From: Horticoccus luteus
GTDB lineage: Bacteria > Verrucomicrobiota > Verrucomicrobiia > Opitutales > Opitutaceae
DNA: 32,000 nt
Direction of reading: 5' to 3'
Assembly: GCF_019464535.1 (NCBI RefSeq)
Contig: NZ_CP080507.1
Location: forward strand, 630,001 to 662,000
The first letter of the stretch is position 1, and every line of letters starts with the position of its first letter. Shown piece after piece: positions 8 to 31,494 of this stretch. Under the pieces are notes generated by a model. That model did no database searches, was not told where the DNA came from, and was given only the letters and a program-made list of their open reading frames with translations. The position numbers were made by a program, and so were the translations under genes.

Positions 8-841
8 TCAGAGCTGGGCGAGGCCGCGCTTGGCGGCTTCGCGCACGGAGCGGTCGACGGCGGTGTCGCGCGTGAGTTGCTCGAGGGTGCCGGCGGCCTC
101 GCGGTCGCGGGCGGCGACGAGAAAGTCGATCATCGACACTTGGACGAGGGGGCTTTGTTCGCGGGGGAGTGACGCGAGCACGCCGGCGCGGACAACGTCT
201 TCGCCGGCGTGCGGGTAAAGCGCATCGAGGGCGGTGAGGCGGACGTTGACGCTGGGATCGAGGGCGAGTGCGCCGATGAGTTGAGTGAGCACCTGCGGAT
301 CGGCTTTCGCGGCGGCCATGGAGGAGAGGACGCCTTGCAGGCGCTCGGGCGTGGAGCGTTCCTGCAGGAGCGAATAACTGACGAGTTGGCCCATCGAATC
401 GACGCGGTGCCGCAAGTCCGCGAGTTCGCGCGCCGTGGCGGGATCTGCGGCGGGAGCGGCGGCCGGGATGACCGCGGGTGGAGCGTAGCGGGTGCCGGCG
501 AGGAAGCCGACGATGAGCAGGCCGCAGGCGGCGACGGGGGCGAAGATCCAGCGCAAGAGCGTAGAGCGCGTGCGTTGCGAGGCGCGACGCGCGGCCGCGG
601 CGACGCTGGCGGCGGAGTTTTTCTCCTCTTCGAGCAGCGCGTAAAAGTGGGTGCGCAGGCGGGGACTGGGGGCGGGGGCGGGCAGGGCGTCGAGGGCCGC
701 CAGGGTTTTATTGAGGGCGGCAAATTCGCGCTGGCAGTCGGGGCAATGGGCGAGATGCGCGCGCACATCCGCCGCGACGGGCGCGGCGAGGCGTTGATCG
801 AGCAAGTCCGGAAAGTGGTCGCGGGCCAGGGTGCAGTTCAT
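8..841 (-). CDS. anti-sigma factor: zf-HC2 N-terminus, single TM helix, HEAT-like C-terminal repeats
   Basis: Starts at the internal Met (MNCTLARDHF...). The zf-HC2 signature is HLAHCPDCQ. There is one hydrophobic helix (LLRWIFAPVAACGLLIVGFLAG). The C-terminal region has HEAT-like repeats (DPSVNVRLTALDAL, SPLVQVSMIDFL, DRSVREAAKRGL). Its ATG (839-841) overlaps the upstream sigma gene's stop (838-840) as ATGA. Confidence 0.75.
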   Translation of the reverse strand: MNCTLARDHFPDLLDQRLAAPVAADVRAHLAHCPDCQREFAALNKTLAALDALPAPAPSPRLRTHFYALLEEEKNSAASVAAAARRASQRTRSTLLRWIFAPVAACGLLIVGFLAGTRYAPPAVIPAAAPAADPATARELADLRHRVDSMGQLVSYSLLQERSTPERLQGVLSSMAAAKADPQVLTQLIGALALDPSVNVRLTALDALYPHAGEDVVRAGVLASLPREQSPLVQVSMIDFLVAARDREAAGTLEQLTRDTAVDRSVREAAKRGLAQL

Positions 842-1482
842 GACAAGGGCTCCTTTTGCAGTTGAAAATAGTGGTCGCGCAAGGCGCGGAGGGCGCGGTG
901 CGCGCGGACTTTCGCGGCGCCGACGGAGCATTCAAGGATGCCGGCGATCTCGGCGAACGAGAGTTCTTGAAAGCGGCTGAGGAGGAGGACCTCGCGGTCG
1001 TCGCGGGCGAGGCGGCCGAGCGCGGTGTGGAGCAGCGCATGGTCGTCACGGGTCGTGGCGCGGTCGCTGGCGTCGGGCGCGTCGTCCGCGTGCGTGTGCA
1101 GGATAGCGGGATCGGTGGCGGTGGGCAGCCGGGTGGACTGGCGAAAATGGTCGGCGGCGCAGCGGCGGGCGAGTTGGTAGAGCCAGGCGGTGAACGACCC
1201 TTCATCGCGGTAGGTGTGGCGGTATTTGAGAATGCGTTGAAAGACGATCTGCGCGATGTCTTCCGCAGCCGCGCGCTGGCCAGTGAGCTTGTAAAGAAAA
1301 CCGAAGAGGGGACCGTGGTGGCGTTCGAAGAGTTCGCCCAGTGAATCGAGTTCCCCATCGCGAACGGCGAGCATGAGGGCGTGATCGGAGGCGGGGGTGG
1401 CGGTGTCCACGGCGAAGCGGGCGCGAGCGTTAGCCGCCGGTGGGCGGGAGGAAATGCGGAAATCGGTCAGGTCGGCGATCAC
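838..1482 (-). CDS. ECF-type RNA polymerase sigma-70 family factor
   Basis: Region 2-like segment: DIAQIVFQRILKYRHTYRDEGSFTAWLYQLARR. Region 4 HTH: REVLLLSRFQELSFAEIAGILECSVGAAKVRAHRALRAL. It is translationally coupled to the anti-sigma gene. The start is uncertain: in-frame GTG at 1410 and ATG at 1374 are alternatives. Confidence 0.85.
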   Translation of the reverse strand: MIADLTDFRISSRPPAANARARFAVDTATPASDHALMLAVRDGELDSLGELFERHHGPLFGFLYKLTGQRAAAEDIAQIVFQRILKYRHTYRDEGSFTAWLYQLARRCAADHFRQSTRLPTATDPAILHTHADDAPDASDRATTRDDHALLHTALGRLARDDREVLLLSRFQELSFAEIAGILECSVGAAKVRAHRALRALRDHYFQLQKEPLS

Positions 1483-2817: not shown

Positions 2818-5800
2818 GTGAAGACCAAGGCGCTGAGGTTAGCCGGAACGGTCCTTGATCTTACTGCCGTAGCTTTATTCTGTATTCTCGCTTTTTGGCC
2901 CCGCGGCAGTGCCGACTTTGCCGATACAGCTGCGGGACCCCGTTCGGGACTTAATATTGCGCACGCTGTTGTCGGCGCACGTTCGGCGATTCCGCTAGGG
3001 CCAGCGCACCACCGACCGCTCACAAAGAGCGAAGAAGAAACTCTTGCCGCCATGCGCACGGCGTTACGGGTGCACAACCCGACCGCGAACCACCGCCTTC
3101 AGAGTGTGCCAGTTAGGGCGCGCAATTTTCCGGCGCCGCTGGAACCGCAACTTTCCACGGCCCAGCGGAAAGTGCTTCAAAAGCTAAGGTGGGGTCCGGC
3201 TAAAGAGCTTATGTATCGAGGCGATGCCGCCGATGCCACGGTGCGCACCTTAGCGTCTCCGGCGTTGGCGTTGGGCAGTCCGGGCGGTCCTGAAGAGGCG
3301 GTGAGTGCGGTGATACGGTTTACGCAAACCAACAAGGAACTGTTCCTGCTCAGCAACCCGGCTCAGGAACTCGCAGTAACGACGATCGACGCGATCGACG
3401 GCTCGGGCTACGTGGTTCGGCTCCAGCAGCGTTACGATGGAATACCTGTCTGGCCGAGCGAAATAATTGGCAACGTGAGCGAAACCGGCGTGCTGACGGT
3501 TATTGCGGGAAGTTACATTCCCACGCCCTCGCTGGCTTCCACCCAACCGTCGATTGAGAAGGCCGAGGCGATCGAGGTTGCACTGGCGCGTGGGGGCTTT
3601 CCGGCGGCAGCCCAAGGGTTGACGACTGAAGCGAAGCTCGTGGTTTTCGGCGACAAAGGGAACGTCCCAGAGTTGGCCTATCACGTGACAATGGAGACGC
3701 CAGACGAGCGGCGGAGTACATTCGTCAGCGCGGTGACTGGACTGGTGCTTTTGAGCTACTCCGAGATCTGCGATGCGAGTGCCACCGGTTCTGGGGTAGA
3801 TTTGCTTGGTGCGACTCGCACGTTAAACGTATCGACCAGTGGAGCATCCTACGTCCTCAAAGACACTTCAAAGGCGATGTATGTACCGGCGACCGGCAAG
3901 GGAGCGATTTCGATTTACGACGCTGGAGAAGTGGCTACCTCGAGTCCGCCTATTGGTGGTTCGGCGAATCTGAATGGCGGTTATGTGCCTGCAGCGGTCA
4001 GTGCAGCCTACAACCTTAGTCGTGTGTATGATTTCTATGCGGGCGCACTGTCCCGAATTTCCTTCGATAATCTAGGCGCTGACGTTATCGCCGTCGTCCG
4101 CGCCCGCAATGCCGACGGCACTACTCTCAGCAATGCTTTTTGGAATAGCCACTTTCTGACGTTTGGATCTGGTGATCGTTATCCTGCCGCTCTGGACGTC
4201 GTTGCGCACGAATTCACTCATGCGGTTACGGGATCTACAGCGCAATTGGTTTACCAAGGAGAGTCGGGCGCTCTTAATGAGAGTTTCTCCGACATCATGG
4301 GAGAAGCCTGTGAGGGATACATGACAGGAGCGGCCGACTGGTTGGTGGGCACTTCGCTCTTACGCCCGTCGCGGAGCCTGAGCGCCCCGGCTCTCTTTGG
4401 GCAGCCCGCCTCAATGTCAGGATATGTCAGGACGACTAACGACAACGGAGGGGTGCATATGAACAGCGGCATTCCCAATCACGCTTTTTACCTGTTGGCG
4501 GAAGGGCTAGAGGGCGGAGGCATTGGTATTACGGCAGCCCGCGATATCTTTTATCGTGCGTTGCGTACGAAGTTGACGTCGCGTTCCACGTTTTACGATC
4601 TGCGGAGCGCTTGCGTCCTTGCGGCAGGCGAACTTTACGGCGCGGGCGAAATCCAGGCCCAAAAAACAGGCCAAGCGTTCGACGCGGTGGAAATCTATGA
4701 CGCGGCGAGCGTCGCAGAACCTCAGGATTTAACGCCGGTCAGCGGTGCCGATGCCTACTTATTCGTCTACAAGGAGCTCGACGGAAATTCCTATTTGAAG
4801 AGGCGCGAGGCGGCGCGGGGAGATGGCTCTGCCCTCGTTCCCATTTCCGCCCAACCGGTGAGTGTATCCACACGCGTTTCTATTACTGCGGACGGATCGA
4901 CGGCGGTGTTTGTGAGCGCAACACATGATCTGGTGGCGGTTGGCACCGATGGCAGCTTCGACGAACGCGCCCGAGCTCCCGGCGTGTTTAACTCCGTTTC
5001 CATTTCGGCGGATGGTAAATACTTAGCCGCGATCGCGCGTGATCCGACGACAGGGCGCGCAGCTAACAAGCTCTTTTTCGTTAACCGTGATGATGGAGTG
5101 TCCCAAGCGATTGATCTTTACGCGCCCAGCATGGACGGACCGTCAGGCCTGCAATTGATCGCGGTCGACGAAGTGGATCTATCTCCCGACGGGCAAATTG
5201 CCCTTTTTGACGGGCTGGCGAGCACAACCCTAGGAGATGGCACAATGATAAAAGGATGGTCGATTTTTGCCGTCGATCTGCAAACTCTATCGATCTATTC
5301 TCTGGCCGGACCATATGCCGGTATTGATATCGGCAATCCCAGTTTCGGACGCGTCTCATCTGGTCGTGCGCTTCTTGAGTTTAATAGTCCGACATCTTCC
5401 GGGGTAATAGCAGTCGATTTGCTACATGGTGCGGTCGCAACGGTTAGCAGTTATAGCCCTGGTTCAATCTATTACGCGTATCCGCGCTATTCCGCTGCGG
5501 ACGATTTCGTTGTCTTTACGAACGATTATTTTGATTTTGGCAGCCTTTCCTATCAGCCGCGGGTCGCCCGCATTTCTCTCCAGCCGGACAAAATTACCCC
5601 GAAAGGCGTGTCATCGGTCTTGAATGCTCCGGCCTATAGCGGGCTCAGTTACAGGCGTGGAGTTTTCGCGGGTCCACCGCTGCTCACAGTTTCAGTGTTG
5701 GCCACTTCGATCGGCAAAGGCCAATCCACCGCGTTTCGGATTAGCCGGATCGGCGGCGACCAAGCGATCCGAGTGCCGGTGTTATTTAAAGCTACCGGCA

Positions 5801-7014
5801 CCGCTCGACCCGGCATTGACTTCAATCCTGTCCCTCTGGGCGTTGATCTCCCGGCTGGCTCCTCTTTTGTCGACGTGCCGATCAGTACGGCTTCAACCGT
5901 CAGCCCCGGGACTCGAACCGTTACGATGGCACTCGATCGGACGAGTTACTACTTGATCTCCGGCGATGGTCAGGCCGTGCTCGCCATCAACGGACCGCCC
6001 GAGATCGTTGTCGCGCCCGAAAGCCAGTTTATTGTCCAGGGCGGCACTGCGGTGTTCAACGTTGGGTTCATCGGTGGAGGCGTCACCTTCCAGTGGTATC
6101 ACGACGGAACAATGATTGCGGGGGCCACTTCTGCGACGTTGTCCTTGGCCAATGTGCAGAAGGGCAGTGCCGGCTCGTATTGGTGCGTGCTGACGAACAC
6201 CGCGGGCTCGACAAGCACGTCGGCGGTAGCTCTTTCGGTAACGCCGGCGGCGTATTTGTCGAACTTGTCGGTGCGGGCCAGCCTGCCGGCCGGCGAGACG
6301 CTCATCACCGGGTTTGTCGTGGAAGGCGGTGCGAAGCCGGTGTTAGTCCGCGCGGCCGGGCCGGCGCTCAATCGCTACGGCATCACGGGTTGCTCCGATC
6401 CCGGCCTAAAACTCTTCAACGCGATCAATACTTTGGTCGGTGAGAACGACGATTGGGACATGTCACTGGCGTCGGTCTTCGGCGACTTAGGCGCATTTCA
6501 GTTCGATGTCGGCAGCAAGGACGCGGCGTTTATGCCATCGTTTAACGGTCCGCACACCGTCCACGTATCCGGCGCCGCAACTGGCTTAGTGCTCGTTGAA
6601 GCCTATGATGCAGGCTCAAACGACGGCCGGGCCCTCGTCAACGTTTCGGCGAGATATCACGTAGGAACGGGTAGTGAAATTCTGATAGCCGGCATAGTCG
6701 TGGCTGGCGAGGGCTCACGGCAGGTTCTTCTGCGCGCTGTGGGGCCAAAGTTGGCAACATATGGAGTCGCGGATATCTTATCCGACCCGAAGCTGGAGGT
6801 GTATCGCGACGGGACTCTGATCGGATCGAATGATAATTGGGCATCGAGTCTCGAGTCGACATTCTCAGTGGTGGGTGCTTTTCCTCTCGAAACTGGGAGC
6901 AAGGATGCTGCGATGGTCCTCGAACTTGCTGCAGGCCGGCCCTACACGATCCAAGTATCTGGCGCAAATGGCGGGTCGGGTGAAGCGTTAGTGGAAGTTT
7001 ACGCGTTGCCGTAG
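2818..7014 (+). CDS. secreted multidomain M4 (thermolysin-family) zinc metalloprotease
   Basis: GTG start followed by a hydrophobic signal/anchor (LDLTAVALFCILAFW). Zinc site HEFTH starts at 4207, with the third ligand in GALNESFSD and GGVHMNSGIPNHAFY (M4 C-lobe). Approximate downstream modules:
- 4717-5680: PD40/TolB-like beta-propeller repeats (ITADGSTAVF, ISADGKYLAA, LSPDGQIALF).
- 5680-5990: Calx-beta-like domain (FKATGTARPGIDF...VDVPI).
- 5995-6244: Ig I-set-like domain (FQWYHDGTMIAGATSATLSL...GSYWCVLTN).
- 6244-7011: two copies of a ~127-aa module also found at the C-terminus of the 19350-29105 protein. Confidence 0.85.
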   Translation: MKTKALRLAGTVLDLTAVALFCILAFWPRGSADFADTAAGPRSGLNIAHAVVGARSAIPLGPAHHRPLTKSEEETLAAMRTALRVHNPTANHRLQSVPVRARNFPAPLEPQLSTAQRKVLQKLRWGPAKELMYRGDAADATVRTLASPALALGSPGGPEEAVSAVIRFTQTNKELFLLSNPAQELAVTTIDAIDGSGYVVRLQQRYDGIPVWPSEIIGNVSETGVLTVIAGSYIPTPSLASTQPSIEKAEAIEVALARGGFPAAAQGLTTEAKLVVFGDKGNVPELAYHVTMETPDERRSTFVSAVTGLVLLSYSEICDASATGSGVDLLGATRTLNVSTSGASYVLKDTSKAMYVPATGKGAISIYDAGEVATSSPPIGGSANLNGGYVPAAVSAAYNLSRVYDFYAGALSRISFDNLGADVIAVVRARNADGTTLSNAFWNSHFLTFGSGDRYPAALDVVAHEFTHAVTGSTAQLVYQGESGALNESFSDIMGEACEGYMTGAADWLVGTSLLRPSRSLSAPALFGQPASMSGYVRTTNDNGGVHMNSGIPNHAFYLLAEGLEGGGIGITAARDIFYRALRTKLTSRSTFYDLRSACVLAAGELYGAGEIQAQKTGQAFDAVEIYDAASVAEPQDLTPVSGADAYLFVYKELDGNSYLKRREAARGDGSALVPISAQPVSVSTRVSITADGSTAVFVSATHDLVAVGTDGSFDERARAPGVFNSVSISADGKYLAAIARDPTTGRAANKLFFVNRDDGVSQAIDLYAPSMDGPSGLQLIAVDEVDLSPDGQIALFDGLASTTLGDGTMIKGWSIFAVDLQTLSIYSLAGPYAGIDIGNPSFGRVSSGRALLEFNSPTSSGVIAVDLLHGAVATVSSYSPGSIYYAYPRYSAADDFVVFTNDYFDFGSLSYQPRVARISLQPDKITPKGVSSVLNAPAYSGLSYRRGVFAGPPLLTVSVLATSIGKGQSTAFRISRIGGDQAIRVPVLFKATGTARPGIDFNPVPLGVDLPAGSSFVDVPISTASTVSPGTRTVTMALDRTSYYLISGDGQAVLAINGPPEIVVAPESQFIVQGGTAVFNVGFIGGGVTFQWYHDGTMIAGATSATLSLANVQKGSAGSYWCVLTNTAGSTSTSAVALSVTPAAYLSNLSVRASLPAGETLITGFVVEGGAKPVLVRAAGPALNRYGITGCSDPGLKLFNAINTLVGENDDWDMSLASVFGDLGAFQFDVGSKDAAFMPSFNGPHTVHVSGAATGLVLVEAYDAGSNDGRALVNVSARYHVGTGSEILIAGIVVAGEGSRQVLLRAVGPKLATYGVADILSDPKLEVYRDGTLIGSNDNWASSLESTFSVVGAFPLETGSKDAAMVLELAAGRPYTIQVSGANGGSGEALVEVYALP

Positions 7015-7258: not shown

Positions 7259-8326
7259 TCAGTCGTCGTGCGCGAGGTGAGTGGGCGCGGGGGCGTGAAC
7301 GGGGGCGGTGCGCTCGGTGGCGGCAGGGTAGGTGCGGGTGGTGCCGCCCCATTTGTCGCAGCCGCCTTCGCCGCTGGGGCGGACGGTGGGTTTTTGAATA
7401 TCCGCGTAGCCGCGGTAGGCGTAGGGATCCTGGCCGGCGACGATGATGATGTCGCGGTAATCGTAGCGTGCGTTGTGCTGATCGTCAGGGGTCTTGCCCC
7501 ATGGGAGAAACGATTCACAGCTCATGTAGTGGTTCACCAAGGCGCGGCGATAGGTGCCCTCGGGGGCGCGATTGGGCAGCGAGCGGTGCAACAGGTAGCC
7601 GTTGAAAAACACGACTGAGCCGGCGGCGACTTCGACGGGGACGGCCTGTTCGTCGCGATAGGGAAAGCCGACCGATTGATCGGAGCAATCGAAGCGGCGG
7701 TCGCCGTGCCACTGCTGCTCCCAGAGGATACCGGGGCGATGCGAGCCGGGCAGAACCCAGAGGCAGCCGTTGTCGATCGTGGCGCGGTCGAGGGCGATCC
7801 ACGCGCCGGTCAGCGAGCGGTCGCGAGTGGGGATGTAATCTTCGTCCTGGTGCCAGGCCTGGCCGGGTTTGCCGGAGGCTTTGATGAAGAGCATCGATTG
7901 CATGAACTTCACGTTGGGGCCGATGACGTGGGTGAGCGCGGCGACGCTGGGCGCGTTGTGGATGGCGGCGGTCATGACCGCCGAACATTTGTGTGGGAAG
8001 TGGATGCAGAGGAAGCGGCGGAGGACGGAGTCGTCGAGCTCGGCTGGATCGGCGCGCGGGTGATCGGGCAACTCGCCGCGTTCGCCGCGGCAGATGAGGG
8101 TGGTCTCGCGTTTCAGGGTTTCGATTTCGGCGGCGGAGAACGCGTCCTCGAGCACGAGGTAGCCGTTGGCGGCGAAGAAGCGCTGGACGGCCGCGGGATC
8201 GGCGTCGGGCGAGAAGTAGCCGGTCGGGCGGACGGCGGGAAAATCGCTGCGGCGGGTGCCGGCGAAACCGCCGGTGTCAACGACGAGGGAAGGGGCGGCG
8301 GGTGTTTCCAAGATTGCAGAGCTCAT
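7259..8326 (-). CDS. phytanoyl-CoA dioxygenase (PhyH) family Fe(II)/2-oxoglutarate-dependent oxygenase
   Basis: PhyH-like N-terminus (FAANGYLVLEDAFSAAEIETLK). HxD iron motif in AWHQDEDYIP. GCLWVLPGSH and the distal His in FFNGYLLHRSLPN. A ~60-aa C-terminal tail has no obvious domain. Confidence 0.8.
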   Translation of the reverse strand: MSSAILETPAAPSLVVDTGGFAGTRRSDFPAVRPTGYFSPDADPAAVQRFFAANGYLVLEDAFSAAEIETLKRETTLICRGERGELPDHPRADPAELDDSVLRRFLCIHFPHKCSAVMTAAIHNAPSVAALTHVIGPNVKFMQSMLFIKASGKPGQAWHQDEDYIPTRDRSLTGAWIALDRATIDNGCLWVLPGSHRPGILWEQQWHGDRRFDCSDQSVGFPYRDEQAVPVEVAAGSVVFFNGYLLHRSLPNRAPEGTYRRALVNHYMSCESFLPWGKTPDDQHNARYDYRDIIIVAGQDPYAYRGYADIQKPTVRPSGEGGCDKWGGTTRTYPAATERTAPVHAPAPTHLAHDD

Positions 8327-19349: not shown

Positions 19350-22300
19350 ATGTCGCCCGCGATGTTCCGTCGTGTAATTCTTATAATCGTGGTGGTTTTG
19401 GCAGTGGGTTTGTTGGGGCGGTGGCTTTCGCACCGGACCGGCGGAGGTCCGACGAGCCCCATGGCGGCAGCGAAGAATGACGCTGGGTCGGCGGCACTCC
19501 CGGCTGCGAAGGGAACGCCGAATTCCCGCGTCGATGAGAAGCAGCCGGCTGCTTCCGCGAACTGGACGTCATTTCCTGTCTTTGGCGCGCACGGAGCGGT
19601 GACTTTGAGCGACATCCCGGCGGGGCGGTTTCACGATCAAGTGGCGCGGTTGGCGGCCGGACCGCAGGCGCGGACGCTGCACCAGCTCGAGACGTTGCAC
19701 GCGCCGCTCAATGACGTCAGATCGCTGCGCGTCGATGCGCGCGGAAGTCTGTATTACGTCTGCACGATTCCGGGTGCGCAGAAGGAGGCGATTGCGACGA
19801 CAACAAGCAGCGAGAGGAAGGCGGTGATGGAGGGCGCCATGCGGGCGGCCGGCGAGTCGCCCAGCGGCAGCCAATCGTATGCAGCCGCGGCGGGCGCGGC
19901 GGTGCCGGTCTCGGCACCTCCCATCCGGCATAGCAGACCGGGGGCGGAGAATGTCATCTATCTGAATTTCAGCGGTTATACAGTCAAAGGAACCGCGTGG
20001 AACGCGGAGCTGGCGAAGGCGGAGTTCGACTGCGTGCCTTACGATACGGATTCGGATCCGACGACGTTCAGCGCGAGCGAGCAGGCGGCGATAGTGGCGA
20101 TCTGGCAGCGGGTGGCGGAAGACTACCGGCCTTTTGATGTTGATGTGACGACGGAGCGCCCGGCGGTTTTTACCAGCCGCACGGCGCATGCCCTGATCAC
20201 GCGCAACACCGACGTGGAGTATAAACCGAATCCGGACAGCGACACCGCGAGCGGCGTGGCGTATGTCGGCGTCTTCGGCGGAGCGGATTATCAAAGCCTG
20301 AGCCCGGCGTTTATCTATTGGAATCTGCTGATCGATGTTTCCGCGATCGCGGATACGATTTCGCATGAGGTCGGCCACAATCTCGGGCTGACGCACGATG
20401 GGACGGCGACCGAGGAATACTATCGGGGCCATGGGATCGGCGAAACGTCGTGGGGGCCGTTGATGGGTGCGCCGAACAAATCGAACGTCACGCAATGGTC
20501 GAAGGGTGAGTATCGCGGGGCCAACAATCCGCAGGACGACATCGCGATCCTGACCGGAAATCTGGGGCGTCGGGCGGACGATGCGGGAGATAACGTGGCG
20601 GCGGCGAGTGAGATGGCCGCAGGCGGAGCGGGATGGACGGCGGGGGGCGTGATTGAGGCGAACACGGACAGCGATGTGTTCGCGTTTACGGCGGACTGGC
20701 CGAATGTGGCGATCACCGTTTCGCCGGACCGGCCGGCGGGGAGCGCCACGGGCGGCAACCTGGACGTGGTGGCGGAGTTGCTGGATGCGAGCGGGACGGT
20801 GGTGGCGCGGGCCGATCCGGCCAACCGTACGTCGGCGATCATCGTGCAGGATGTAGCGCCGGGTAGATATTATGTGCGAGTGAGCGCGACCGGGACGGGC
20901 AATCCGTGGGCGGATTCCCCGACGGGTTATACGAGTTACGGTTCGGTGGGCGGCTATACGATCGCGGTGGTGTCTCGTCCGCGCATCACGCCGGCCCGGA
21001 ATGTTGTGGCGCCGGGTCAGGCGATCGCGCTCGAGGGTGCGGTCGGAGGCGGTTCCGGGCTGACGTTTCGTTGGAAGAAGGACGGGACGTTCATCAATGG
21101 CGCGACGACGGCGACATTGAACGTGGGGAATGCGGGCCGCGGAGACAGCGGGGCCTATACGCTGGAAATCACGGATGGAAATTCGGTCACGCGGCGAGGC
21201 ACGGCGTTTGTACAGGTGGCGCCGGCGCAAACGGAATTGCGGATGTGGGGCAGTAACGACCGGGGGCAGACAGCGGTGCCGGCGGACTTGCACACGGCGG
21301 TGAGCGTGGCCGCGGGCGATGATAACACTTTGGTGATCGAGGCGGATGGGACGGTGCTTGGTTGGGGGCTCAACGACTCAGGCGACATGCGTGTGCCGGA
21401 CGGTCTCCATGCCGTAGTCGCAGTGGCAACGGCGGGAGAGCACGCGCTCGCGTTGCGGGCAGACGGGACCGTGATGAGTTGGGGACAAGCCGATGGTTTC
21501 AGTGTGAGGGGCGTGCCGGCAGATCTCGCGGACGTCGTGGCGGTGGCGACGGGCGGGAAGCATAATCTCGCGTTGAAAGCGGATGGGACGGTCGTCGCCT
21601 GGGGGGGCGACGAGAAGGGCCAGACTGACGTGCCGGATGGGCTGGTGGATGTGGTGGCCGTGGCCGCGGGGGATGAGCATTCGCTCGCGTTGAAACGGGA
21701 TGGGAAGGTGGTCGCCTGGGGCTCGAATTATGGCGGAGCGACGTATGTGCCGACTGGCCTGACGAATGTCGTGGCGATCAGCGCTGCGGCGAACGGATCT
21801 CTCGCGCTGAAAGCGGATGGGACGGTGGTGTTTTGGGGCATTGGCTACAATGGCCCGAGCAATATTCCGGCGGATCTGGCGCAGGTGAGCGGAGTGGCGT
21901 TGGGCGCGGAACACGTGATTGCGCGGAAGGGGGACGGGACGGTGGTGGGCTGGGGCTCGAATTCCTTTGGCCAGACGGATAATTCGCTCGGCTTGACCGA
22001 CGTGATTGGCGTCGCGGCAGGGCGGGCGCACACGGGGGCGTTGCGCGACGCGAGCCGCGATCACGTGCCCACGATCACTGTGGGGCCGCTGACGCAGAGC
22101 GTGGCAGAGGGCACGGACGTGACGTTGAGCGTGGAGGCGAGCGGCGGGGGAGCGCAGTTGTTTTATCAATGGCGGAAGAACGGGGAAGTCATCGCGGGCG
22201 CGACGACGGCCACGTTGGCGCTGGACGAAGTCACTTCCGCGGCCGGGGGTAGCTACGACATCATCGTGACCGACTGGCTCGGCAGGACGCCCTCGTCGCC

Positions 22301-25300: not shown

Positions 25301-28300
25301 CGGCGCAAACGTGCCCGCGGGGATTTATGATGCGGTCGCGGTGGTGGCGGGAAATTTTTACGCCCTGGCGTTGCGGGCGGATGGGACGGTGGTCAGCTGG
25401 GGCTCTAGTTATGGCGGAGCGGCGCAGGTGCCCGCTGGCCTCACCAATGTGATCGGCCTGGCGGGGGGCAGCTCGCAGTCCTATGCGTGGCGCGCCGACG
25501 GGACCGTGGTGGGTTGGGGCCAGCCGTCGGGCGAGATGAACGTGCCGCAGGGGCTTTCCGACGTGATCGCTTTGGCGGCGGGGGATTTTCATGTGCTCGC
25601 TTTGCGGGGCGATGGCACGGTCGTGGCGTGGGGCAACGCGACGCAAGGAGCCCAAGCCGTCCCCGCGGGACTGGCTCACGTCACGGCGATCGCGGCGGGT
25701 CGCGCGCATTCGCTCGCTCTGAAATCCGATGGCACGGTGACGGGCTGGGGATCGAATGCGTGGGGACAGGCCACCCCGCCGGCCGGGCTTAAGCAAGTGG
25801 TGGCGATCGCGGCGGGTGGCGATCTTTCCGTGGCGTTGAAACGCGATGGCACGGTGGTCACGTGGGGTCTCGGGGCGGCGGATATCACCAGGCCGCCGCA
25901 GGGGCTGACCGACGTGGTCAAGATTGCCGCGGGCAATGCCTTCGCGCTGGCCGTGCGCGCGAATGGGAGCGTCACGGCCTGGGGCTACGATACGAGCCTC
26001 GCGGTGAGCACGGCACCGGCGTTGCGCGACGTGGTCAACGTCGCCGGCGGATATGACTTCGGGCTGGCCCTGCGCATGGCCGCCAACGATCCCGCACCGG
26101 TGATCACCGCTCAGCCCATTCCCGCCACAGCTGTGGAGGGCTCGTCGGCGACGTTAAACATTGCAGTCAAGGCCGGCGATTCCTCTCCCGTGTTTGAGTG
26201 GAGGAAAAACGGCGTTTCGCTCGGTCAGTCGATTCAGTCGCAGCTCACGCTGACGAACATCACGCCAGCGGATGCGGGCGGCTATTCGGTCGTCGTGACC
26301 AACAGTGGCGGCTCGGTGACGAGCGAGGCGGTGGCTTTGACCGTGGTGCCGCTGCCGAGGATCGTGCGGCCGGCGAAACCGCGGCAGCTTTTGCGCGCGG
26401 GGGAGCCGCTGACGCTGGCGATCGCGGCGGAAGGCACCGGGACTTTGCACTACCAGTGGTTCCGCAACCGGCGGCCGATCGACGGAGCCACTCAGGCGAG
26501 TTACGTGCGGCCGTCGTGCACGGTGGCGGACAAGGGACTTTATTGGGTGGAGGTCAGCGACGATGTCGGCCTGCGGCGGAGCCGCCTCCTCAGTGTAAGC
26601 GTAGCGCCACAGGTGAGTGCCGTGGTGGCGTGGGGCGATGTGCTGACCTACAATTTGCTGCCCGACAAGGTAACGGATGTAGCCGAGATGGCGGGCGGCA
26701 CCCAGTTCGCGTTCTATTTGCATGCGGATGGCACGGTCAGCGTGGTCGGCAATCCGGGCGTGGCCCACGTGCCGGCCGGACTGGCAGGAGTGGTCGCCAT
26801 CGGAGCGGGCGGTTGGCAAGCGATGGCCGTGAAGGCCGATGGTTCGGTGGTCCAGTGTGGTAGCAACCTATATCCGGCCCCGGCGTACTTGACCGATGTC
26901 GTGGCCGTGGCCGCGGGCAATGGACATTGTCTCGCGTTGCGGGCGGACGGCACCGTGGTCGCATGGGGTGACAACAGAAACAACCAGACCACCGTGCCGG
27001 CGGGTTTGACCAACGTCGTGGCCATTAGCGCCGGGCAGGATTCCTCAGCGGCGGTGACCGCGGACGGCACGCTCTATTGCTGGGGTTACGGAGGTTCATG
27101 GATAGTCACGCGGGATGCCGTCGCGGTGGCGACGGGAACCGATGCCACGCTGGTCCTCAAGAGCGACGGAACGGTCTTTATGCAGAGATACGGATCGCAT
27201 GGGGAGTCGAGCGTGCCGGCGGGGCTCGCGAACGTGGCCGAAGTGGTCGCCGGTTCGCTGCATCTGGTGGCGTTGAAATCCGACGGCACGGTGGTGGCGT
27301 GGGGCCAATCGTCCCTCGGAAAAACCGTGGTGCCCGCCGGTCTCGACCGCGTCGTGGGCATAGCGGCAGGCAGCGATTTTTCGCTCGCCCTGCGCGAGGC
27401 GGCACCGGCGAGTGCGCCCGCGATCGTGACTGCGCCGGTCGGCCAACGCGTGCTGGCGGGACGCTCAGCGGAATTTCGCGTGAGCGTCGTGGGAACGCCG
27501 GCCCTGACTTTCCAGTGGAAAAAGAACGGAGCCGCACTTCCCGGAGAAACGGCGGCGACACTGAAACTAGCGGCCGTGGAGGCTTCCGATGCGGGCGCCT
27601 ACAGCGTCACCGTGACCAATGCGCAAGGCAGCGCGACCAGTGCAGCGGCGACGCTCACGGTCGTGCCGCGTTCCGCATTTGCGGGTAGCTATTTCGGGAC
27701 GTTTGGCTCGGGCGGCGCGTGGGGATTGCACGTGCGCGACGACGGCACGGCGGTGCTGGTCGCGGACTTGCGGAGCCGGCAGAGCGCGCTCGTGGTGGAG
27801 TTCAGCGTGGCGGCGGACGGCACGTTTGACGCACTGGGCGCGGAGATGCGCTCTTCGCTACAAACGCCGGCGGGCGGGCGTTGGGCGGCGGCGCCGCTGG
27901 CAAGCGATTTCTCCCTCACCGGACAGATCGGCGGAAACGGTGCGATCGCCGGCAACCTGACGGGCCTGGGCGAAACGTTCTCGGGCGCGCTCGACGCGGC
28001 GAACGGTGCAGCGCACGCGCGAGCGGGCTATTATACAGCGACGGCGCTCGCGGCTGACGCCGGCGAAACATATCTCGTGATCGGTCCGTCCGGGCAAGCC
28101 GTCGCGGTGGTCACAGCGCCGGGGCGGGTCGAGAGTGCGGCCGGCATCGTCGACGCCGGGGGGCAGTTGGCGGCGACGAGCGGCTCGCACTCTTCGATCA
28201 ACGTTGCGGTGGGTTCGGCTGGAGAAAATGTCAGCGTGAGCGTGCTTCCGGCGGGCGCGGCGGCGGCGATTCGTTACGCGGGATTGTCCGATCGCGTGGC

Positions 28301-29105
28301 GCCGGTGGCGCGGTTCACCAATCTCTCGATTCGCAGCCGCGCTGGAGCGGGATCGCAGACCCTGATTGTCGGTTTCGTGGTCAACGGCGCGGGCACGATG
28401 CCGCTTTTGGTGCGGGGCATCGGTCCCGCGCTGAGCGCGTTTGGCGTCACCAATGCGGTGCCTGATCCGCGTCTGCGATTGTTCGACGCGCACGGGACGG
28501 AAGTGGATGGGAACGACAACTGGAACGGCTCGCTGGCGTTGCGCGACGAGTTCCGGATCGTGGGGGCGTTCGAACCGGCGGCCGACTCCAAGGATGCCGC
28601 GCTTTACTCCGAGCGGCCGGCGGGAGCCTATACGTTCCACGCGGTGACCAATGACGGGACGGAAGGCGTGGCGTTGGCGGAACTGTATGTCGCCGACGCG
28701 GGACCGGGCACCACGGATCTGGTGAACATCTCGGCGCGGACTTACGTGGGCACGGGAGACGATGTGTTGATCGCGGGCTTCGTCGTGGCCGGCAACGCGC
28801 CGAAGCGGTTGTTGATCCGCGGATTGGGGCCGACACTGGCGGGGTATGGCGTGACGGGCGTGCTGGCGAACCCGGTGCTGCGTGTTTTTGAAGGCGGGAC
28901 GGAAATCGCGCTGAACGACGACTGGCAGGGCGGGGCGGACTTGAAGGCCGCGTTTGCGACGGTGGGGGCGGCGCCGATGGCGAGCGACTCAAGTCAGGAT
29001 GCGGCGTTGCTGATCACGCTGGAGCCGGGAATCTACACGGCACAGGTGAGCGGCGTGAGTGGCTCCGCGGGGGTGGCGTTGGTGGAAATCTTCGCGCTGC
29101 CGTGA
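19350..29105 (+). CDS. giant secreted metzincin-type zinc metalloprotease with PPC domain, five Ig-RCC1 propeller-Ig super-repeats and a tandem C-terminal module
   Basis: ATG at 19350; TTG at 19326 and ATG at 19362 are alternatives. Signal/anchor: FRRVILIIVVVLAVGLLG. Metzincin motif HEVGHNLGLTHD starts at 20364. Approximate modules:
- 20578-20970: pre-peptidase C-terminal-like domain (DSDVFAFTA...GRYYVRVSATG).
- 20975-27665: five units of Ig-like domain, seven RCC1-like blades of about 39 aa (WGxNxxGQxxVPxxLxxVVAVAAGxxHxLALxxDGTVxx), then an Ig-like domain.
- 27665-28290: Ala/Gly-rich unassigned region.
- 28314-29102: two copies of the same C-terminal module as the M4 protease. Confidence 0.85.
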   Translation: MSPAMFRRVILIIVVVLAVGLLGRWLSHRTGGGPTSPMAAAKNDAGSAALPAAKGTPNSRVDEKQPAASANWTSFPVFGAHGAVTLSDIPAGRFHDQVARLAAGPQARTLHQLETLHAPLNDVRSLRVDARGSLYYVCTIPGAQKEAIATTTSSERKAVMEGAMRAAGESPSGSQSYAAAAGAAVPVSAPPIRHSRPGAENVIYLNFSGYTVKGTAWNAELAKAEFDCVPYDTDSDPTTFSASEQAAIVAIWQRVAEDYRPFDVDVTTERPAVFTSRTAHALITRNTDVEYKPNPDSDTASGVAYVGVFGGADYQSLSPAFIYWNLLIDVSAIADTISHEVGHNLGLTHDGTATEEYYRGHGIGETSWGPLMGAPNKSNVTQWSKGEYRGANNPQDDIAILTGNLGRRADDAGDNVAAASEMAAGGAGWTAGGVIEANTDSDVFAFTADWPNVAITVSPDRPAGSATGGNLDVVAELLDASGTVVARADPANRTSAIIVQDVAPGRYYVRVSATGTGNPWADSPTGYTSYGSVGGYTIAVVSRPRITPARNVVAPGQAIALEGAVGGGSGLTFRWKKDGTFINGATTATLNVGNAGRGDSGAYTLEITDGNSVTRRGTAFVQVAPAQTELRMWGSNDRGQTAVPADLHTAVSVAAGDDNTLVIEADGTVLGWGLNDSGDMRVPDGLHAVVAVATAGEHALALRADGTVMSWGQADGFSVRGVPADLADVVAVATGGKHNLALKADGTVVAWGGDEKGQTDVPDGLVDVVAVAAGDEHSLALKRDGKVVAWGSNYGGATYVPTGLTNVVAISAAANGSLALKADGTVVFWGIGYNGPSNIPADLAQVSGVALGAEHVIARKGDGTVVGWGSNSFGQTDNSLGLTDVIGVAAGRAHTGALRDASRDHVPTITVGPLTQSVAEGTDVTLSVEASGGGAQLFYQWRKNGEVIAGATTATLALDEVTSAAGGSYDIIVTDWLGRTPSSPAVLTVNPLPGVTSRSNARQVLSPGDTLTLNVAATGAGALHYQWRRNGRVLAGETGATLSKPAMAVADSGTYIVEVTDDWGTRRVPFFVNVMPASTRVVMWGDGGDPALGAVPADLTDAVALAAGYRFSLALRRDGTVVGWGQSNGWGQATPPAGLTDVVAIAGGLYHALALRADGTVVAWGSRGGDALTLPSGLSDVTALAGGSGNSTSLRLNGKVATWGDGGSYGPMPANLRDVIAIASGAYHRLALKSDGTVVAWGSNTRGESTVPAGLSDVTAIAAGGQISLALRADGTVVAWGDKPFPGTQMPTDLKDVVAIAVGSTVAVALKSNGTLVTWGAKVDGANIPAAVTNTLAVAMGTAHGLALCDMSRDTAPVLTTAPADQVVAEGRDATFTVVVNGSAPLSYQWRKDGVPVAGATNATLTIVAAVPSEAGRYDVVATNLRGTVTSPAATLTVRPLPILTSWSPARQRVAQGQSFSLAAAATGTGGLHYEWRHDGRVIPGATAATFERAETSSTDGGLYTVVVTDDVGSRSYVSVVVVAPTATEVRAWGSNGYGQTNVPANLGNVVSVAAAGEHSLALQGDGKVVAWGRNAYGESTVPGALGPVVAIAGGTTFSVAVTDAGRVVAWGDNAAGQLNVPGDLSEVVAVAAGEGFIVALKADGTVRAWGTNRFGESTPPSRLGNVTAIAAGSSNALAVKADGTVIRWGSNDAALDVPADLTDVANVASGGLYAIATKRDGTVASWGGGLAPAPAGTSTVATVAVGPGHALVARTDGSVVGWANSNVPQTTPPANLANVIAVAAGNGHELALRDASGGKAPVILTQPRDQTVVEGTATILSVNASGGPSVLRYQWQKDGAEVAGATTAVLALTNVTGGGSGRYTVVVSNDLGTVTSLAATLTVRLLPVISASSAARLVIAPGQPLALFVTASGTGSLHYQWYKDGSALPGATAATYNKNAAVVTDSGNYWVEVSDEVGVRGSAKMSVLVSGVRTEIRGWGKGVGANVPAGIYDAVAVVAGNFYALALRADGTVVSWGSSYGGAAQVPAGLTNVIGLAGGSSQSYAWRADGTVVGWGQPSGEMNVPQGLSDVIALAAGDFHVLALRGDGTVVAWGNATQGAQAVPAGLAHVTAIAAGRAHSLALKSDGTVTGWGSNAWGQATPPAGLKQVVAIAAGGDLSVALKRDGTVVTWGLGAADITRPPQGLTDVVKIAAGNAFALAVRANGSVTAWGYDTSLAVSTAPALRDVVNVAGGYDFGLALRMAANDPAPVITAQPIPATAVEGSSATLNIAVKAGDSSPVFEWRKNGVSLGQSIQSQLTLTNITPADAGGYSVVVTNSGGSVTSEAVALTVVPLPRIVRPAKPRQLLRAGEPLTLAIAAEGTGTLHYQWFRNRRPIDGATQASYVRPSCTVADKGLYWVEVSDDVGLRRSRLLSVSVAPQVSAVVAWGDVLTYNLLPDKVTDVAEMAGGTQFAFYLHADGTVSVVGNPGVAHVPAGLAGVVAIGAGGWQAMAVKADGSVVQCGSNLYPAPAYLTDVVAVAAGNGHCLALRADGTVVAWGDNRNNQTTVPAGLTNVVAISAGQDSSAAVTADGTLYCWGYGGSWIVTRDAVAVATGTDATLVLKSDGTVFMQRYGSHGESSVPAGLANVAEVVAGSLHLVALKSDGTVVAWGQSSLGKTVVPAGLDRVVGIAAGSDFSLALREAAPASAPAIVTAPVGQRVLAGRSAEFRVSVVGTPALTFQWKKNGAALPGETAATLKLAAVEASDAGAYSVTVTNAQGSATSAAATLTVVPRSAFAGSYFGTFGSGGAWGLHVRDDGTAVLVADLRSRQSALVVEFSVAADGTFDALGAEMRSSLQTPAGGRWAAAPLASDFSLTGQIGGNGAIAGNLTGLGETFSGALDAANGAAHARAGYYTATALAADAGETYLVIGPSGQAVAVVTAPGRVESAAGIVDAGGQLAATSGSHSSINVAVGSAGENVSVSVLPAGAAAAIRYAGLSDRVAPVARFTNLSIRSRAGAGSQTLIVGFVVNGAGTMPLLVRGIGPALSAFGVTNAVPDPRLRLFDAHGTEVDGNDNWNGSLALRDEFRIVGAFEPAADSKDAALYSERPAGAYTFHAVTNDGTEGVALAELYVADAGPGTTDLVNISARTYVGTGDDVLIAGFVVAGNAPKRLLIRGLGPTLAGYGVTGVLANPVLRVFEGGTEIALNDDWQGGADLKAAFATVGAAPMASDSSQDAALLITLEPGIYTAQVSGVSGSAGVALVEIFALP
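20975..27665 (+). repeat. five intragenic tandem super-repeats of ~1.34-1.35 kb (Ig, 7-bladed RCC1-like propeller, Ig)
   Basis: The first-blade Trp codons of successive propellers are at 21246, 22599, 23946, 25287 and 26631. Spacings are 1353, 1347, 1341 and 1344 nt, all multiples of 3. Within each propeller the blade period is about 117 nt. Strings such as gcggatgggacggtggt recur. Confidence 0.85.
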
Positions 29106-29179: not shown

Positions 29180-30481
29180 ATGTTGCCCCTCGCCGAAAAC
29201 TCTCCTTCGCTCGCGGACGCCGCCCTGGTCACGCCACGCCCCGAGTCGCCGGCCACGGCGAATTGCCAGTTGCTCTACTTCACTTCTTCCAGCGCCACGG
29301 AGGACGGGGCCGTGCTGGCGGCGATTACGGACGAGTATTCAACGAAGGAGGGCGGAGCGAGTCTCGCGCGCATCGACCGGCAGGCGCACGCGATGGAGCC
29401 GCTCGCGATTTTTGAGGGGCCGGCGGTGCAGGCGTATCCTTATTTCGCGCGGCCGCGCGCGGCGGATCCGGCCAAGGAGTATCTTTACAACGGTCCGGTC
29501 GCGACGCACGGGTTGAACAAATCGAGCCCGTGCCTGCATCCGGCGTCGGGGGATTTGTTTTTCGTGTGGGTGCGTGAGGATGGGTGCAATCAACTCGATT
29601 GCGTGAATCTGCACTCGGGGCTGCGGCGGCAGGTGACGGAGTTTCCGGCGGATCGCACGGTGGCGTATTGTCATCTCGATTGCCTGGGCGCGCATCTGCT
29701 CGTGGCCTTGGCGGATGCGCGGGTGCTGGCTCTGGGCGCGAAGCGGGACAGCAATCGCGGAGTGTCGGAGGCGTTTGGGCGCCTCGGGTTGACGACGCGG
29801 CTCGTGGAGGTGGAGGTGGCGTCGGGCGCGAGCGAAGTGCGTTGGGAAGACCAGGGCTGGGTCACGCACGTGCAATATCATCCGCAGCATCGCGACACCG
29901 TGTTGTTTAATCGCGAATGGACCTGGCCGCTGGGGACGCAGCGCATGTGGCTCAAGCAGCGGGGCGAACCGCCGGTGCAGGTGCGCCGTCCGGAGCGGCC
30001 GGTTCAGTTCCGGGTGTCGCCCGATCTGGCGCTCGACGATGTGGCGCATGAAGTGTGGCAGGAGGACGGCACGGCAATCATCTACCACGGCATGCAGTGG
30101 GACGCGGGCGATTTTCCGGAGCAATTCGTCGGGCGCGCGCCTGTCAATGCGACGGCGCCGTTGCAGGAGATTTCTCTGCCGCGCGAGGTGGTGTCGTTTT
30201 ACGGACATTTCTATCCGAGCGCGACCGGCGATTTCGTGATCACGGATGCCGTGGCGAACGAGCGCGGGCGGGCGCAGCGCAAGGGCAATTTGATTTCGCG
30301 GCTGGACATGGACTGGGTGAACGGGTCGATGCGCGTGACGCCGTTGTGCGAGAGCAACGCGTCGTGGCATACGCAGGACAATCATCCGCATCCGGTGCTC
30401 TCACCCGATGAGAGTGAAGTGTTGTTTACGTCGGACGGCAGCGGCGTGCGGCAGATTTACTCGGTGCCGGTGGCGCCGTGA
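29180..30481 (+). CDS. oligogalacturonide lyase (PL22)-like beta-propeller protein
   Basis: Resemblance from memory to Ogl-type enzymes: HPQHRDTVLF...RMWL, HEVWQEDGTAIIYHG, and the C-terminal SWHTQDNHPHPVLSPDESEVLFTSDGSGVRQIYSVPV (compare THPHPSFTPDDKQILFTSD in enterobacterial Ogl). No signal peptide is evident. Confidence 0.6.
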   Translation: MLPLAENSPSLADAALVTPRPESPATANCQLLYFTSSSATEDGAVLAAITDEYSTKEGGASLARIDRQAHAMEPLAIFEGPAVQAYPYFARPRAADPAKEYLYNGPVATHGLNKSSPCLHPASGDLFFVWVREDGCNQLDCVNLHSGLRRQVTEFPADRTVAYCHLDCLGAHLLVALADARVLALGAKRDSNRGVSEAFGRLGLTTRLVEVEVASGASEVRWEDQGWVTHVQYHPQHRDTVLFNREWTWPLGTQRMWLKQRGEPPVQVRRPERPVQFRVSPDLALDDVAHEVWQEDGTAIIYHGMQWDAGDFPEQFVGRAPVNATAPLQEISLPREVVSFYGHFYPSATGDFVITDAVANERGRAQRKGNLISRLDMDWVNGSMRVTPLCESNASWHTQDNHPHPVLSPDESEVLFTSDGSGVRQIYSVPVAP

Positions 30482-30720: not shown

Positions 30721-31494
30721 ATGCTCACTTACGATCAGGTGCAATTGTTTGACCGCGACGGCTACGTGCTCGTGCCGGACGTGTTTACGCCGCAGGAAAT
30801 CGAAATCCTTGTCGCCAACGTGGGTGGCGCCCGCACGAAGAAGCACGAGGGCAACATGCCCGATGCGGCGGGGCGTTCGAGCAAGCTCTCGCTGTGGGCC
30901 GACATCGGCGACGATGTGTTTGGGGCGGTGAGCGCGAGTCCGCGCGTGGTGAACAACGCGCGCATCTTGTTGCGCGAGGAAGTTTATCACTGGCACAGCA
31001 AAGTGATGCTGAAGGAGCCGCGCGTGGGCGGGGCGTGGGAGTGGCATCAGGATTACGGATATTGGTATGGCGACGGCTGTCTCTACCCGCGGATGATCTC
31101 GTGCATGATCGCGCTGGACGCAGCGACGCGCGAGAACGGGTGTTTGAAGGTGATTCCCGGTTCGCATCTGCTCGGGCGTTTCGACCACGGGCGCGTGGGC
31201 CAGCAGGCGGGCGCGGATCAGGAGCGCGTGGCCGCGGTGGCGGAGCGGCTGGGGGTGGTGTATTGCGAAGCTCCCGCGGGAAGCGCGCTGTTTTTCCACG
31301 GCAACACGTTTCATGCGTCCGAGGCGAATCTATCGGACCGGCCGCGGCGCGCTTACATTTGCTGCTACAACGCGTTTTCCAACGTGCCGTATGGCGGCCA
31401 CGGGCACGGGCGGCCGGAGCCGATCGCGGTTGCTCCGGATGATGCGATTTTGCGATTCACCACGGCGAGTGAGCCGACGACGGCGGCGCGGTGA
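30721..31494 (+). CDS. phytanoyl-CoA dioxygenase (PhyH) family Fe(II)/2-oxoglutarate-dependent oxygenase
   Basis: FDRDGYVLVPDVFTPQEIEIL. HxD in WEWHQDYGYW. GCLKVIPGSHLLG. Distal His in FFHGNTFHAS. Confidence 0.8.
   Translation: MLTYDQVQLFDRDGYVLVPDVFTPQEIEILVANVGGARTKKHEGNMPDAAGRSSKLSLWADIGDDVFGAVSASPRVVNNARILLREEVYHWHSKVMLKEPRVGGAWEWHQDYGYWYGDGCLYPRMISCMIALDAATRENGCLKVIPGSHLLGRFDHGRVGQQAGADQERVAAVAERLGVVYCEAPAGSALFFHGNTFHASEANLSDRPRRAYICCYNAFSNVPYGGHGHGRPEPIAVAPDDAILRFTTASEPTTAAR

Follow-up and report, generated by a model that had tools for sequence, protein, structure and literature searches.

A differentiated pair of PPC-like modules at the C-termini of two giant Horticoccus luteus metalloproteases: a candidate binding or tethering unit of exported Verrucomicrobiota proteins

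Results

Two giant metalloproteases end in the same tandem module

The subject of this analysis is a tandem protein module that forms the C-terminus of two very large metalloproteases encoded in a stretch of 32,000 nucleotides (nt) of the Horticoccus luteus genome (Verrucomicrobiota; Opitutaceae; contig NZ_CP080507.1, positions 630,001 to 662,000). We refer to this whole stretch as the window; its G+C content is 64.5%, and its features are listed in Table 1. One of the two proteins is an M4 (thermolysin-family) protease and the other a metzincin, and both start with a hydrophobic segment of the export type.

From the N- to the C-terminus, the M4 protease consists of a hydrophobic export signal, an FTP propeptide motif, the M4 catalytic domains (Pfam Peptidase_M4, PF01447, E = 4.1e-25; Peptidase_M4_C, PF02868, E = 1.3e-45), a middle region, an immunoglobulin-like (Ig) domain, with an Ig_3 match at residues 1060–1127, and the module pair. 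The middle region (residues ~640–1050, approximately nt 4740–5970) has no family match in Pfam at E ≤ 1; by eye, propeller-like and Calx-beta-like stretches can be seen between the catalytic and Ig domains. The metzincin consists of a hydrophobic segment, a protease domain with the motif HExxHxxGxxH, a PPC-like domain, repeated Ig/RCC1-propeller units, a region of about 210 amino acids (aa), and the module pair. Pfam identifies 23 RCC1_2 stretches and 10 Ig_3 stretches in it, together with weak Reprolysin-like matches. No match in Pfam or NCBIfam covers the region of ~210 aa (residues ~2790–2997, approximately nt 27690–28313; SAFAGSYFGTFGSGGAWGLHVRDDGT...) that separates the last Ig domain from the module pair; the rest of the protein is made up of Ig-Ig-RCC1-propeller units that recur periodically.

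Table 1. Coordinates of the two proteases, their module copies and neighbouring genes within the window (HMM, hidden Markov model; ORF, open reading frame; i-E, independent E-value)
Feature	Position (nt)	Strand	Evidence
M4 (thermolysin-family) protease gene, 1,398 aa	2818–7014	+	ORF and Pfam
M4 active-site motif HEFTH with flanking residues	4207–4242	+	Lies between the Peptidase_M4 and Peptidase_M4_C matches
Ig-like domain immediately before the M4 module pair	5995–6240	+	Ig_3, I-set and Ig_2 matches, residues 1060–1141
M4 copy A, 126 aa	6256–6633	+	HMM, i-E 3.5e-54
M4 copy B, terminal, 126 aa	6634–7011	+	HMM, i-E 1.6e-59
Metzincin gene, 3,259 aa	19326–29105	+	ORF and Pfam
Metzincin zinc-binding motif HEVGHNLGLTHD	20364–20399	+	Translation
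PPC-like domain of classical type, immediately after the metzincin catalytic domain	20667–20888	+	PF04151 below threshold, and hhalign
Metzincin copy A, 134 aa	28314–28715	+	HMM, residues 2998–3131 of the stop-to-stop ORF, i-E 2.3e-63
Metzincin copy B, terminal, 128 aa	28719–29102	+	HMM, residues 3133–3260 of the stop-to-stop ORF, i-E 1.5e-58
zf-HC2 anti-sigma-type ORF, left edge of the window	8–931	−	
PhyH-family dioxygenase gene	7259–8326	−	
ORF of 413 aa	12730–13971	+	ATG start; no Pfam match at E ≤ 1e-3
IS481/rve-type transposase ORF, 411 aa	15204–16439	−	HTH_32, rve and LZ_Tnp_IS481
ORF of 697 aa	16938–19031	−	RHS-repeat match
Oligogalacturonate-lyase-like gene	29180–30481		
PhyH-family dioxygenase gene	30721–31494	+	

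Each protein carries two copies of the module, designated A and B. The boundaries given in Table 1 come from an HMM made from the four copies in the window. Because these copies themselves built the HMM, its domain E-values of 1e-54 to 1e-63 serve to set boundaries and are not independent measures of significance. An earlier start at 6244 for the M4 pair takes in four linker residues. The metzincin ends in ...GVALVEIFALP and the M4 protease in ...EALVEVYALP, each followed directly by the stop codon (29103–29105 and 7012–7014, respectively). The four copies align over 138 columns, of which 35 are invariant, with 41–44% identity to the first copy, and the two terminal copies are 51% identical. 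Landmarks present in all four are N-x-S-x-R, LIxGxVV, RxxGPxL, P-x-L, NDxW, GA(F), S-x-DAA and a final LxE strand.

An earlier note on this DNA, made from the sequence alone, had described a tandem C-terminal module on two unrelated exported proteases, listed its landmarks, and put the second copies at "roughly 50%" identity. Translation of 28314–29102 and 6244–7011 bears this out, giving modules of ~126–134 aa with ALP directly before the stop, all the listed landmarks in the four-copy alignment, and two different metalloprotease types, an M4 enzyme with HEFTH and a metzincin with the zinc-binding motif of Table 1. The note was likewise right that the ending is not a PEP-CTERM signal: there is no transmembrane helix or basic tail, both proteins end in a β-strand, LVE(V/I)(Y/F)ALP, and no PEP-CTERM model in NCBIfam matches at E ≤ 1.

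The two tandem regions share no DNA similarity detectable by blastn, so that they do not result from a recent duplication or copy, and gene conversion between the two genes is ruled out on the same grounds. A six-frame translation of the window contains no further ORF that matches the module HMM. Two antisense ORFs that overlap the module region of the metzincin (27858–28640 and 28447–28992) resemble the shadow ORFs of a GC-rich gene.

The modules are predicted to have a PPC-like fold

The structure of the M4 pair was predicted using AlphaFold2, from an alignment of 122 sequences comprising the two window regions and 120 homologues. The tandem model has a predicted local distance difference test score (pLDDT) of 95.7 and a predicted template modelling score (pTM) of 0.90, and a model of a single terminal module (M4 copy B) has a pLDDT of 96.0. 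Each module is predicted to be a jelly-roll β-sandwich of eight strands and two short helices.

Foldseek was used to compare the models with structures in the PDB. The best match of the single module is to 5sv5, the PPC domain of Bacillus anthracis collagenase, with template modelling (TM) scores of 0.57/0.67 and a root mean square deviation of 3.7 Å. It is accompanied by 3afg, the C-terminal jelly roll of the subtilisin Tk-SP (TM 0.61), and by the collagen-binding domains (CBDs) of ColG (1nqj, TMt 0.65) and ColH (3jqw, 0.54/0.56), all four matches having a probability of 1.00. The C-terminal domain of KP-43 and C-CPE are also among the leading matches, while the carbohydrate-binding modules (CBMs) of families 35, 6 and 51 match at lower TM scores of 0.41–0.51. 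The top match of the tandem model is the tandem CBD s3a-s3b of ColG (5iku, E = 1.3e-6), and tandem CBM51 is also matched. The viral fold library BFVD gave only generic jelly-roll and capsid matches, at low TM scores.

At the level of sequence, neither tandem region matches any Pfam family at E ≤ 1. This includes the PPC family PF04151, which has a gathering score of 25.9 bits, and membership of that family by sequence was therefore rejected. Sequence and profile searches of the PDB, made with the 4-copy alignment and with an alignment of 50 diverse modules, returned only chance-level matches (E > 0.4) and no PPC chain. A tentative profile link is provided by the metzincin itself, whose own PPC-like domain (residues 448–521) scores 18.4 bits against PF04151, under the cut-off. 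Comparison of the 50-module profile with this domain using hhalign gave a probability of 60% and an E-value of 8.5e-5 over 46 columns; the aligned core is D-P-x-L-x-L...G...A...G-x-Y-T-x-x-V, with the NDNW...GAF helix region as an insertion. On this profile evidence the PPC-like domain is a putative distant homologue of the C-terminal module.

Among curated sequence models, the module is recognised by one alone, NCBIfam NF038127 ("DVUA0089 family protein", FDP_fam). The metzincin pair reaches 27.7 bits with this model, under its whole-protein cut-off of 29, through residues 183–249 of the tandem, and the M4 pair gives no match in the NCBIfam scan. Among the 122 tandem sequences, 79 match at E < 0.01 (best 1.9e-14), and of ten sampled relatives four are above the 29-bit cut-off, three are below it and three have no match. 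The matches span profile positions ~4–109 of 150, approximately two thirds of the model. Judged by these scores, the module would be a divergent branch at the edge of the NF038127 family. We found no experimentally tested function for that family in the literature searched on DVUA0089 and NF038127, and membership would therefore not explain a mechanism. The founding gene, DVUA0089, belongs to an exopolysaccharide/biofilm sigma-54 regulon of Desulfovibrio vulgaris (PMC4641369), which would fit an extracellular or matrix role, although the link is circumstantial.

We therefore place the module in the PPC/collagen-binding-domain superfamily, a placement that is established at the level of the predicted fold and weakly made at the level of sequence. 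The earlier note had called the module unassigned. This holds in so far as no Pfam model covers it; however, the structure prediction and Foldseek search that the note proposed as a check place it closest to solved PPC and collagen-binding domains, and it lies at the edge of NF038127.

The similarities to PPC domains and CBDs extend beyond the β-sandwich fold. Those domains too occur at the C-termini of secreted M4 and metzincin-type proteases, and both metallopeptidases in the window have an export segment and carry the pair C-terminal to the catalytic domain. They can also be tandem, as in ColG s3a-s3b and in the M4 protease E495, and in the hhalign comparison the PPC core motif D-x-x-L-x-L...G-x-x-x-A...G-x-Y-x-x-x-V aligns with the module. 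In contrast to PPC domains, the module has the inserted helix region (NDNW...GAF) and the landmarks N-x-S-x-R, RxxGPxL and S-x-DAA; it forms an obligate, differentiated A-B pair; it is found mostly on cargo other than peptidases; and it has a conserved terminus, Y-x-x-P-COOH. CBM6, CBM35 and CBM51 are likewise non-catalytic appended modules that are sometimes tandem and share the jelly-roll fold, but they score below PPC/CBD in the structure comparison and the cargo of the module is rarely a glycoside hydrolase.

The C-terminal domain (CTD) of the type IX secretion system (T9SS), of type A (TIGR04183), was considered because it is also a β-sandwich at the extreme C-terminus of diverse signal-peptide proteins within one phylum, the Bacteroidota. 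It is a single domain of ~80 aa, whereas the unit described here has two domains of ~130 aa each and also occurs internally. At the model cut-off (≥ 23 bits, at the extreme C-terminus) neither tandem region matches, as the earlier note had expected, and 8 of the 122 relatives match weakly (best E = 3.9e-5). Within the metzincin, the classical-type PPC-like domain beside the catalytic domain scores 22.7 bits against TIGR04183 at residues 478–522 (nt 20757–20891, + strand), far from the C-terminus; this illustrates that PPC-like sandwiches can cross-match the sorting-domain model. We know of no T9SS in Verrucomicrobiota.

The module occurs as an A-B pair, usually at the C-terminus

We then analysed the occurrence of the module in other proteins. 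A library of 1.84 billion protein cluster representatives (clusters at 50% identity) was searched exhaustively by profile, which gave 19,427 clusters at E ≤ 1e-3, of which 11,279 also match at E ≤ 1e-30. Since 19,427 clusters were matched independently, the pair is not a chance resemblance. Its anatomy was examined in two samples, the best 150 of the 19,427 representatives and, with less bias towards high scores, 80 loci of species-representative genomes. In the 150 representatives, the number of modules per protein is two in 107 cases, four in 35, three in six and six in two, while 92 of the 98 module-bearing ORFs at the genome loci contain two copies. This distribution shows that the module comes in pairs. 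Moreover, in other proteins the nearest neighbour of a B copy is again a B copy in 186 of 189 cases, and that of an A copy is again an A copy in 153 of 189. A and B are thus distinct types, and we conclude that the pair is inherited as a unit.

In 141 of the 150 representatives, no more than 5 residues follow the last copy, and a copy ends within 5 residues of the stop in 83 of the 92 assessable ORFs at the genome loci. However, the top representatives also have pairs at the N-terminus or internally (51 of 189), many of them directly after the signal peptide or before Ig domains or linkers; these proteins usually end with a pair as well. A signal-peptide-like N-terminus is present in 123 of the 150 representatives by a crude test. 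Four large Ig/RCC1 proteins (P0134, P0146, P0151 and P0194) have their last pair ~200–335 residues before the end and share a terminal tail, EDGF(A/G)x(G/P)P, which has no Pfam match; in the three of these that were scanned with Pfam (P0134, P0146 and P0194), Ig domains follow the pair.

The ending itself is strongly conserved. The tails of the 120 homologues have the form E-x-Y-x-x-P, and in 120 of 131 terminal B copies the chain ends at exactly the third residue beyond the conserved tyrosine (Y+3). Proline occupies Y+3 in 94 of the 131 terminal B copies (72%) but in only 8 of 33 internal ones (24%); in A copies, the commonest residues at the equivalent position do not include it. A Y-x-(L/I)-P ending is nevertheless present in some internal copies. 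The earlier note's description of the module as strictly C-terminal is thus true of the window and of approximately 90% of the family proteins, which end with a pair, but not of all pairs. The ALP tail, too, is not exclusively a mark of the terminus, even if terminal copies are clearly enriched in proline. A profile scan of the kind that it suggested, run over the cluster representatives, returned tandem modules on mostly signal-peptide-like proteins, though not always at the C-terminus.

The literature searched, on DVUA0089, NF038127 and sorting domains of Verrucomicrobiota, contained no description of the module. Four of its features appear to be undescribed there: the obligate, differentiated A-B pair, the very large expansion in Verrucomicrobiota, the cargo other than proteases and the Y-x-x-P-COOH ending.

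Cargo, taxonomic distribution and neighbouring genes

Partner domains were identified in 63 representatives, where Ig-type domains (Ig_3) are the partner in 29. Other partners are NHL, SBBP and RCC1 propellers, PKD, PhoX, glycoside hydrolase family 26 (GH26) and Calx-beta, as well as a metallo-beta-lactamase domain. A second sequence flavour, in which NDNW...E-S-A replaces S-K-D-A-A, has at least 8,000 matches, with cupredoxin, CHRD, M10 and Kelch partners. Many proteins of Chthoniobacterales-type relatives (P0285–P0390) are ~380–430 aa long and consist of one cupredoxin/plastocyanin domain (PF00127) and a module pair, which suggests a tethered extracytoplasmic electron carrier.

The cargo bears on two possible roles of the pair. 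The first is that of a CBM directing enzymes to dietary polysaccharide. The likeness in fold to CBM35, CBM6 and CBM51 and to tandem CBM51, and the one GH26 fusion, are consistent with such a role, and Opitutaceae are polysaccharide degraders. Nevertheless we regard it as very unlikely: a glycoside hydrolase domain was found in just 1 of the 63 representatives (among the 25 commonest of 51 partner families), fusions to proteases, cupredoxins and phosphatases are hard to reconcile with a dietary glycan, and PPC/CBD structures outscore CBMs in Foldseek.

The second is the classical "pre-peptidase" role, in which the pair would be an extension for folding, stability or latency that is cleaved after secretion and has no function in the mature enzyme. 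The PPC-like fold is in keeping with this, the Tk-SP jelly roll is among the best structural matches, and in M4, M9, M28 and S8 peptidases the PPC domains are as a rule cleaved off once the enzyme has been secreted, with proposed roles in helping secretion or in inhibiting the enzyme (PMC3327674). However, most family members are not peptidases (Ig/propeller arrays, cupredoxins, PhoX, GH26 and metallo-beta-lactamase domain proteins), several pairs can occur in one protein, some of them N-terminal, and the PPC-containing form of E495 is a stable and more efficient mature enzyme (PMC3327674). We consider this role on its own improbable, if less so than a dietary-glycan CBM.

Named sources of the module are all Verrucomicrobiota (Opitutaceae, Opitutales, Chthoniobacterales, Udaeobacter), except for one metagenome-assembled genome labelled Bryobacteraceae (Acidobacteriota; L004, DASZXS010000062.1), which at 51% identity is among the best genome matches and could be due to a binning error or to horizontal transfer. 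The highest identity of a genome match to a module is 53%. The genome scan is biased towards close relatives, because its patterns derive from the window.

No neighbouring gene is conserved within 3 kb on either side of the 80 genome loci, where the neighbours are mostly antisense shadow ORFs of GC-rich genes. The only recurring neighbour family is an extracytoplasmic function (ECF)-sigma-like ORF, found at 6 of the 80 loci (for example at 3536–4603 on the + strand of locus L052). An anti-sigma-type ORF lies at the left edge of the window (Table 1); this and the ECF-sigma-like neighbours may be a coincidence.

These results allow us to weigh a third possibility, that the pair acts as a C-terminal tag for sorting or attachment, specific to the phylum and read by dedicated Verrucomicrobiota machinery, a functional analogue of the T9SS CTD that would serve translocation across the outer membrane or covalent or non-covalent attachment to the surface. 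The A-B pair with its Y-x-x-Pro-COOH ending would then be the recognition tag of an undescribed, Verrucomicrobiota-wide route that delivers Sec-exported proteins, among them proteases, cupredoxins, phosphatases and adhesin-like arrays, to the cell surface or attaches them there. Such a route would be a functional counterpart of T9SS CTD and sortase-type signals, but made of PPC-like domains; in a variant of the idea, the pair could be the long-sought folded "secretion signal" read by the type II secretion system of the phylum. The position of the pair at the end of ~90% of proteins in both samples, the exact Y+3 end and the terminal enrichment of proline all point in this direction, as do the very diverse cargo (including cupredoxins, phosphatases and proteases), the near restriction of named sources to one phylum and the very large size of the family; the sub-threshold T9SS CTD matches in 8 of the 122 relatives lend slight further support. 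On the other hand, about a quarter of the pairs in the top representatives are N-terminal or internal, out of reach for a signal that depends on the terminus, and the 3-kb flanks contain no conserved gene that would point to a cognate machinery. Two folded domains totalling 260 aa are also far larger than known sorting domains, and no module exceeds the T9SS CTD cut-off. We know of no candidate sorting machinery for the pair. Overall we judge a sorting tag to be unlikely, but to be the most serious of the alternatives considered.

Discussion

A proposed function in binding or tethering

We favour, with modest confidence, a non-catalytic role of the PPC type for the pair, namely binding or tethering. 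Three observations suggest this role. The closest solved relatives (collagen-binding domains, C-CPE and CBMs) are binding domains; there is already an M4 protease, E495, with two C-terminal PPC domains; and proteins with two or three pairs look like designs for avidity. In E495 both PPC domains bind proteins, and the form that contains them is more efficient on protein substrates, the domains being removed stepwise (PMC3327674). Binding is also preferred to a terminus-dependent signal because pairs in N-terminal or internal positions cannot serve as a free C-terminal signal. The earlier note had suggested a role in sorting, anchoring or substrate targeting, and this appears to be the right class of role.

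In the proposed mechanism, thousands of exported Verrucomicrobiota proteins have come to carry a two-domain A-B unit, in most cases as their last 260 residues. The N-terminal hydrophobic segment would direct the protein through the inner membrane via Sec, after which the pair would fold as a rigid unit. The role of this unit would be non-catalytic: it would bind a polymer, which could belong to the cell's own envelope or matrix or be a macromolecular substrate, and would thus hold its cargo, here two large metalloproteases, near the cell or the substrate. Two or three pairs on one protein would add avidity. A probable role of the Y-x-x-Pro-COOH end is to cap the last strand, for instance as protection from exoproteases acting at the C-terminus, and in proteases the pair may also be trimmed during maturation, as classical PPC domains are. 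Because the cargo is heterogeneous, a ligand common to all the proteins is likelier than the individual substrate of each enzyme. The more likely ligands would therefore be the cell's own envelope glycan, its own matrix or generic polymer surfaces, in which case the module would be a retention device.

Several points weigh against a binding or tethering unit. Both the ligand and the binding site are hypothetical. Superfamily membership rests on the fold and on weak profile evidence, because the PDB sequence searches and PF04151 gave nothing. The strictness of the ending (~90% terminal, 120 of 131 copies with the exact Y+3 end, and proline in 94 of 131 against 8 of 33) exceeds what a simple binding domain needs and would fit a recognised C-terminal tag. 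Finally, the cupredoxin fusions suit localisation better than substrate binding.

Other genes of the window

The region that contains the two proteases is flanked by two PhyH-family dioxygenase genes, and an oligogalacturonate-lyase-like gene directly follows the metzincin gene (Table 1). A transposase ORF lies between the protease loci. Beside it, and divergent from the metzincin gene, is the ORF with the RHS-repeat match, which may be a fragment of a polymorphic-toxin-type protein. The remaining ORF listed, of 413 aa, is on the same strand as the proteases.

Significance

Verrucomicrobiota are abundant degraders in soil, freshwater and gut, and little is understood of how their enzymes come to be placed on the cell or outside it. 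One appended unit, present in ~19,000 protein clusters, marks a large part of the exported proteome of this phylum. The pair could be used as an in-silico marker of the exoproteome, as a handle on localisation, and as a candidate tethering module for enzyme engineering. The giant proteases described here fit the known plan of an M4 enzyme followed by two PPC domains, for which E495 is the precedent (PMC3327674). If a machinery does recognise the strict C-terminal ending, the pair would define a new sorting system; otherwise, thousands of "hypothetical" C-termini gain a fold and a family.

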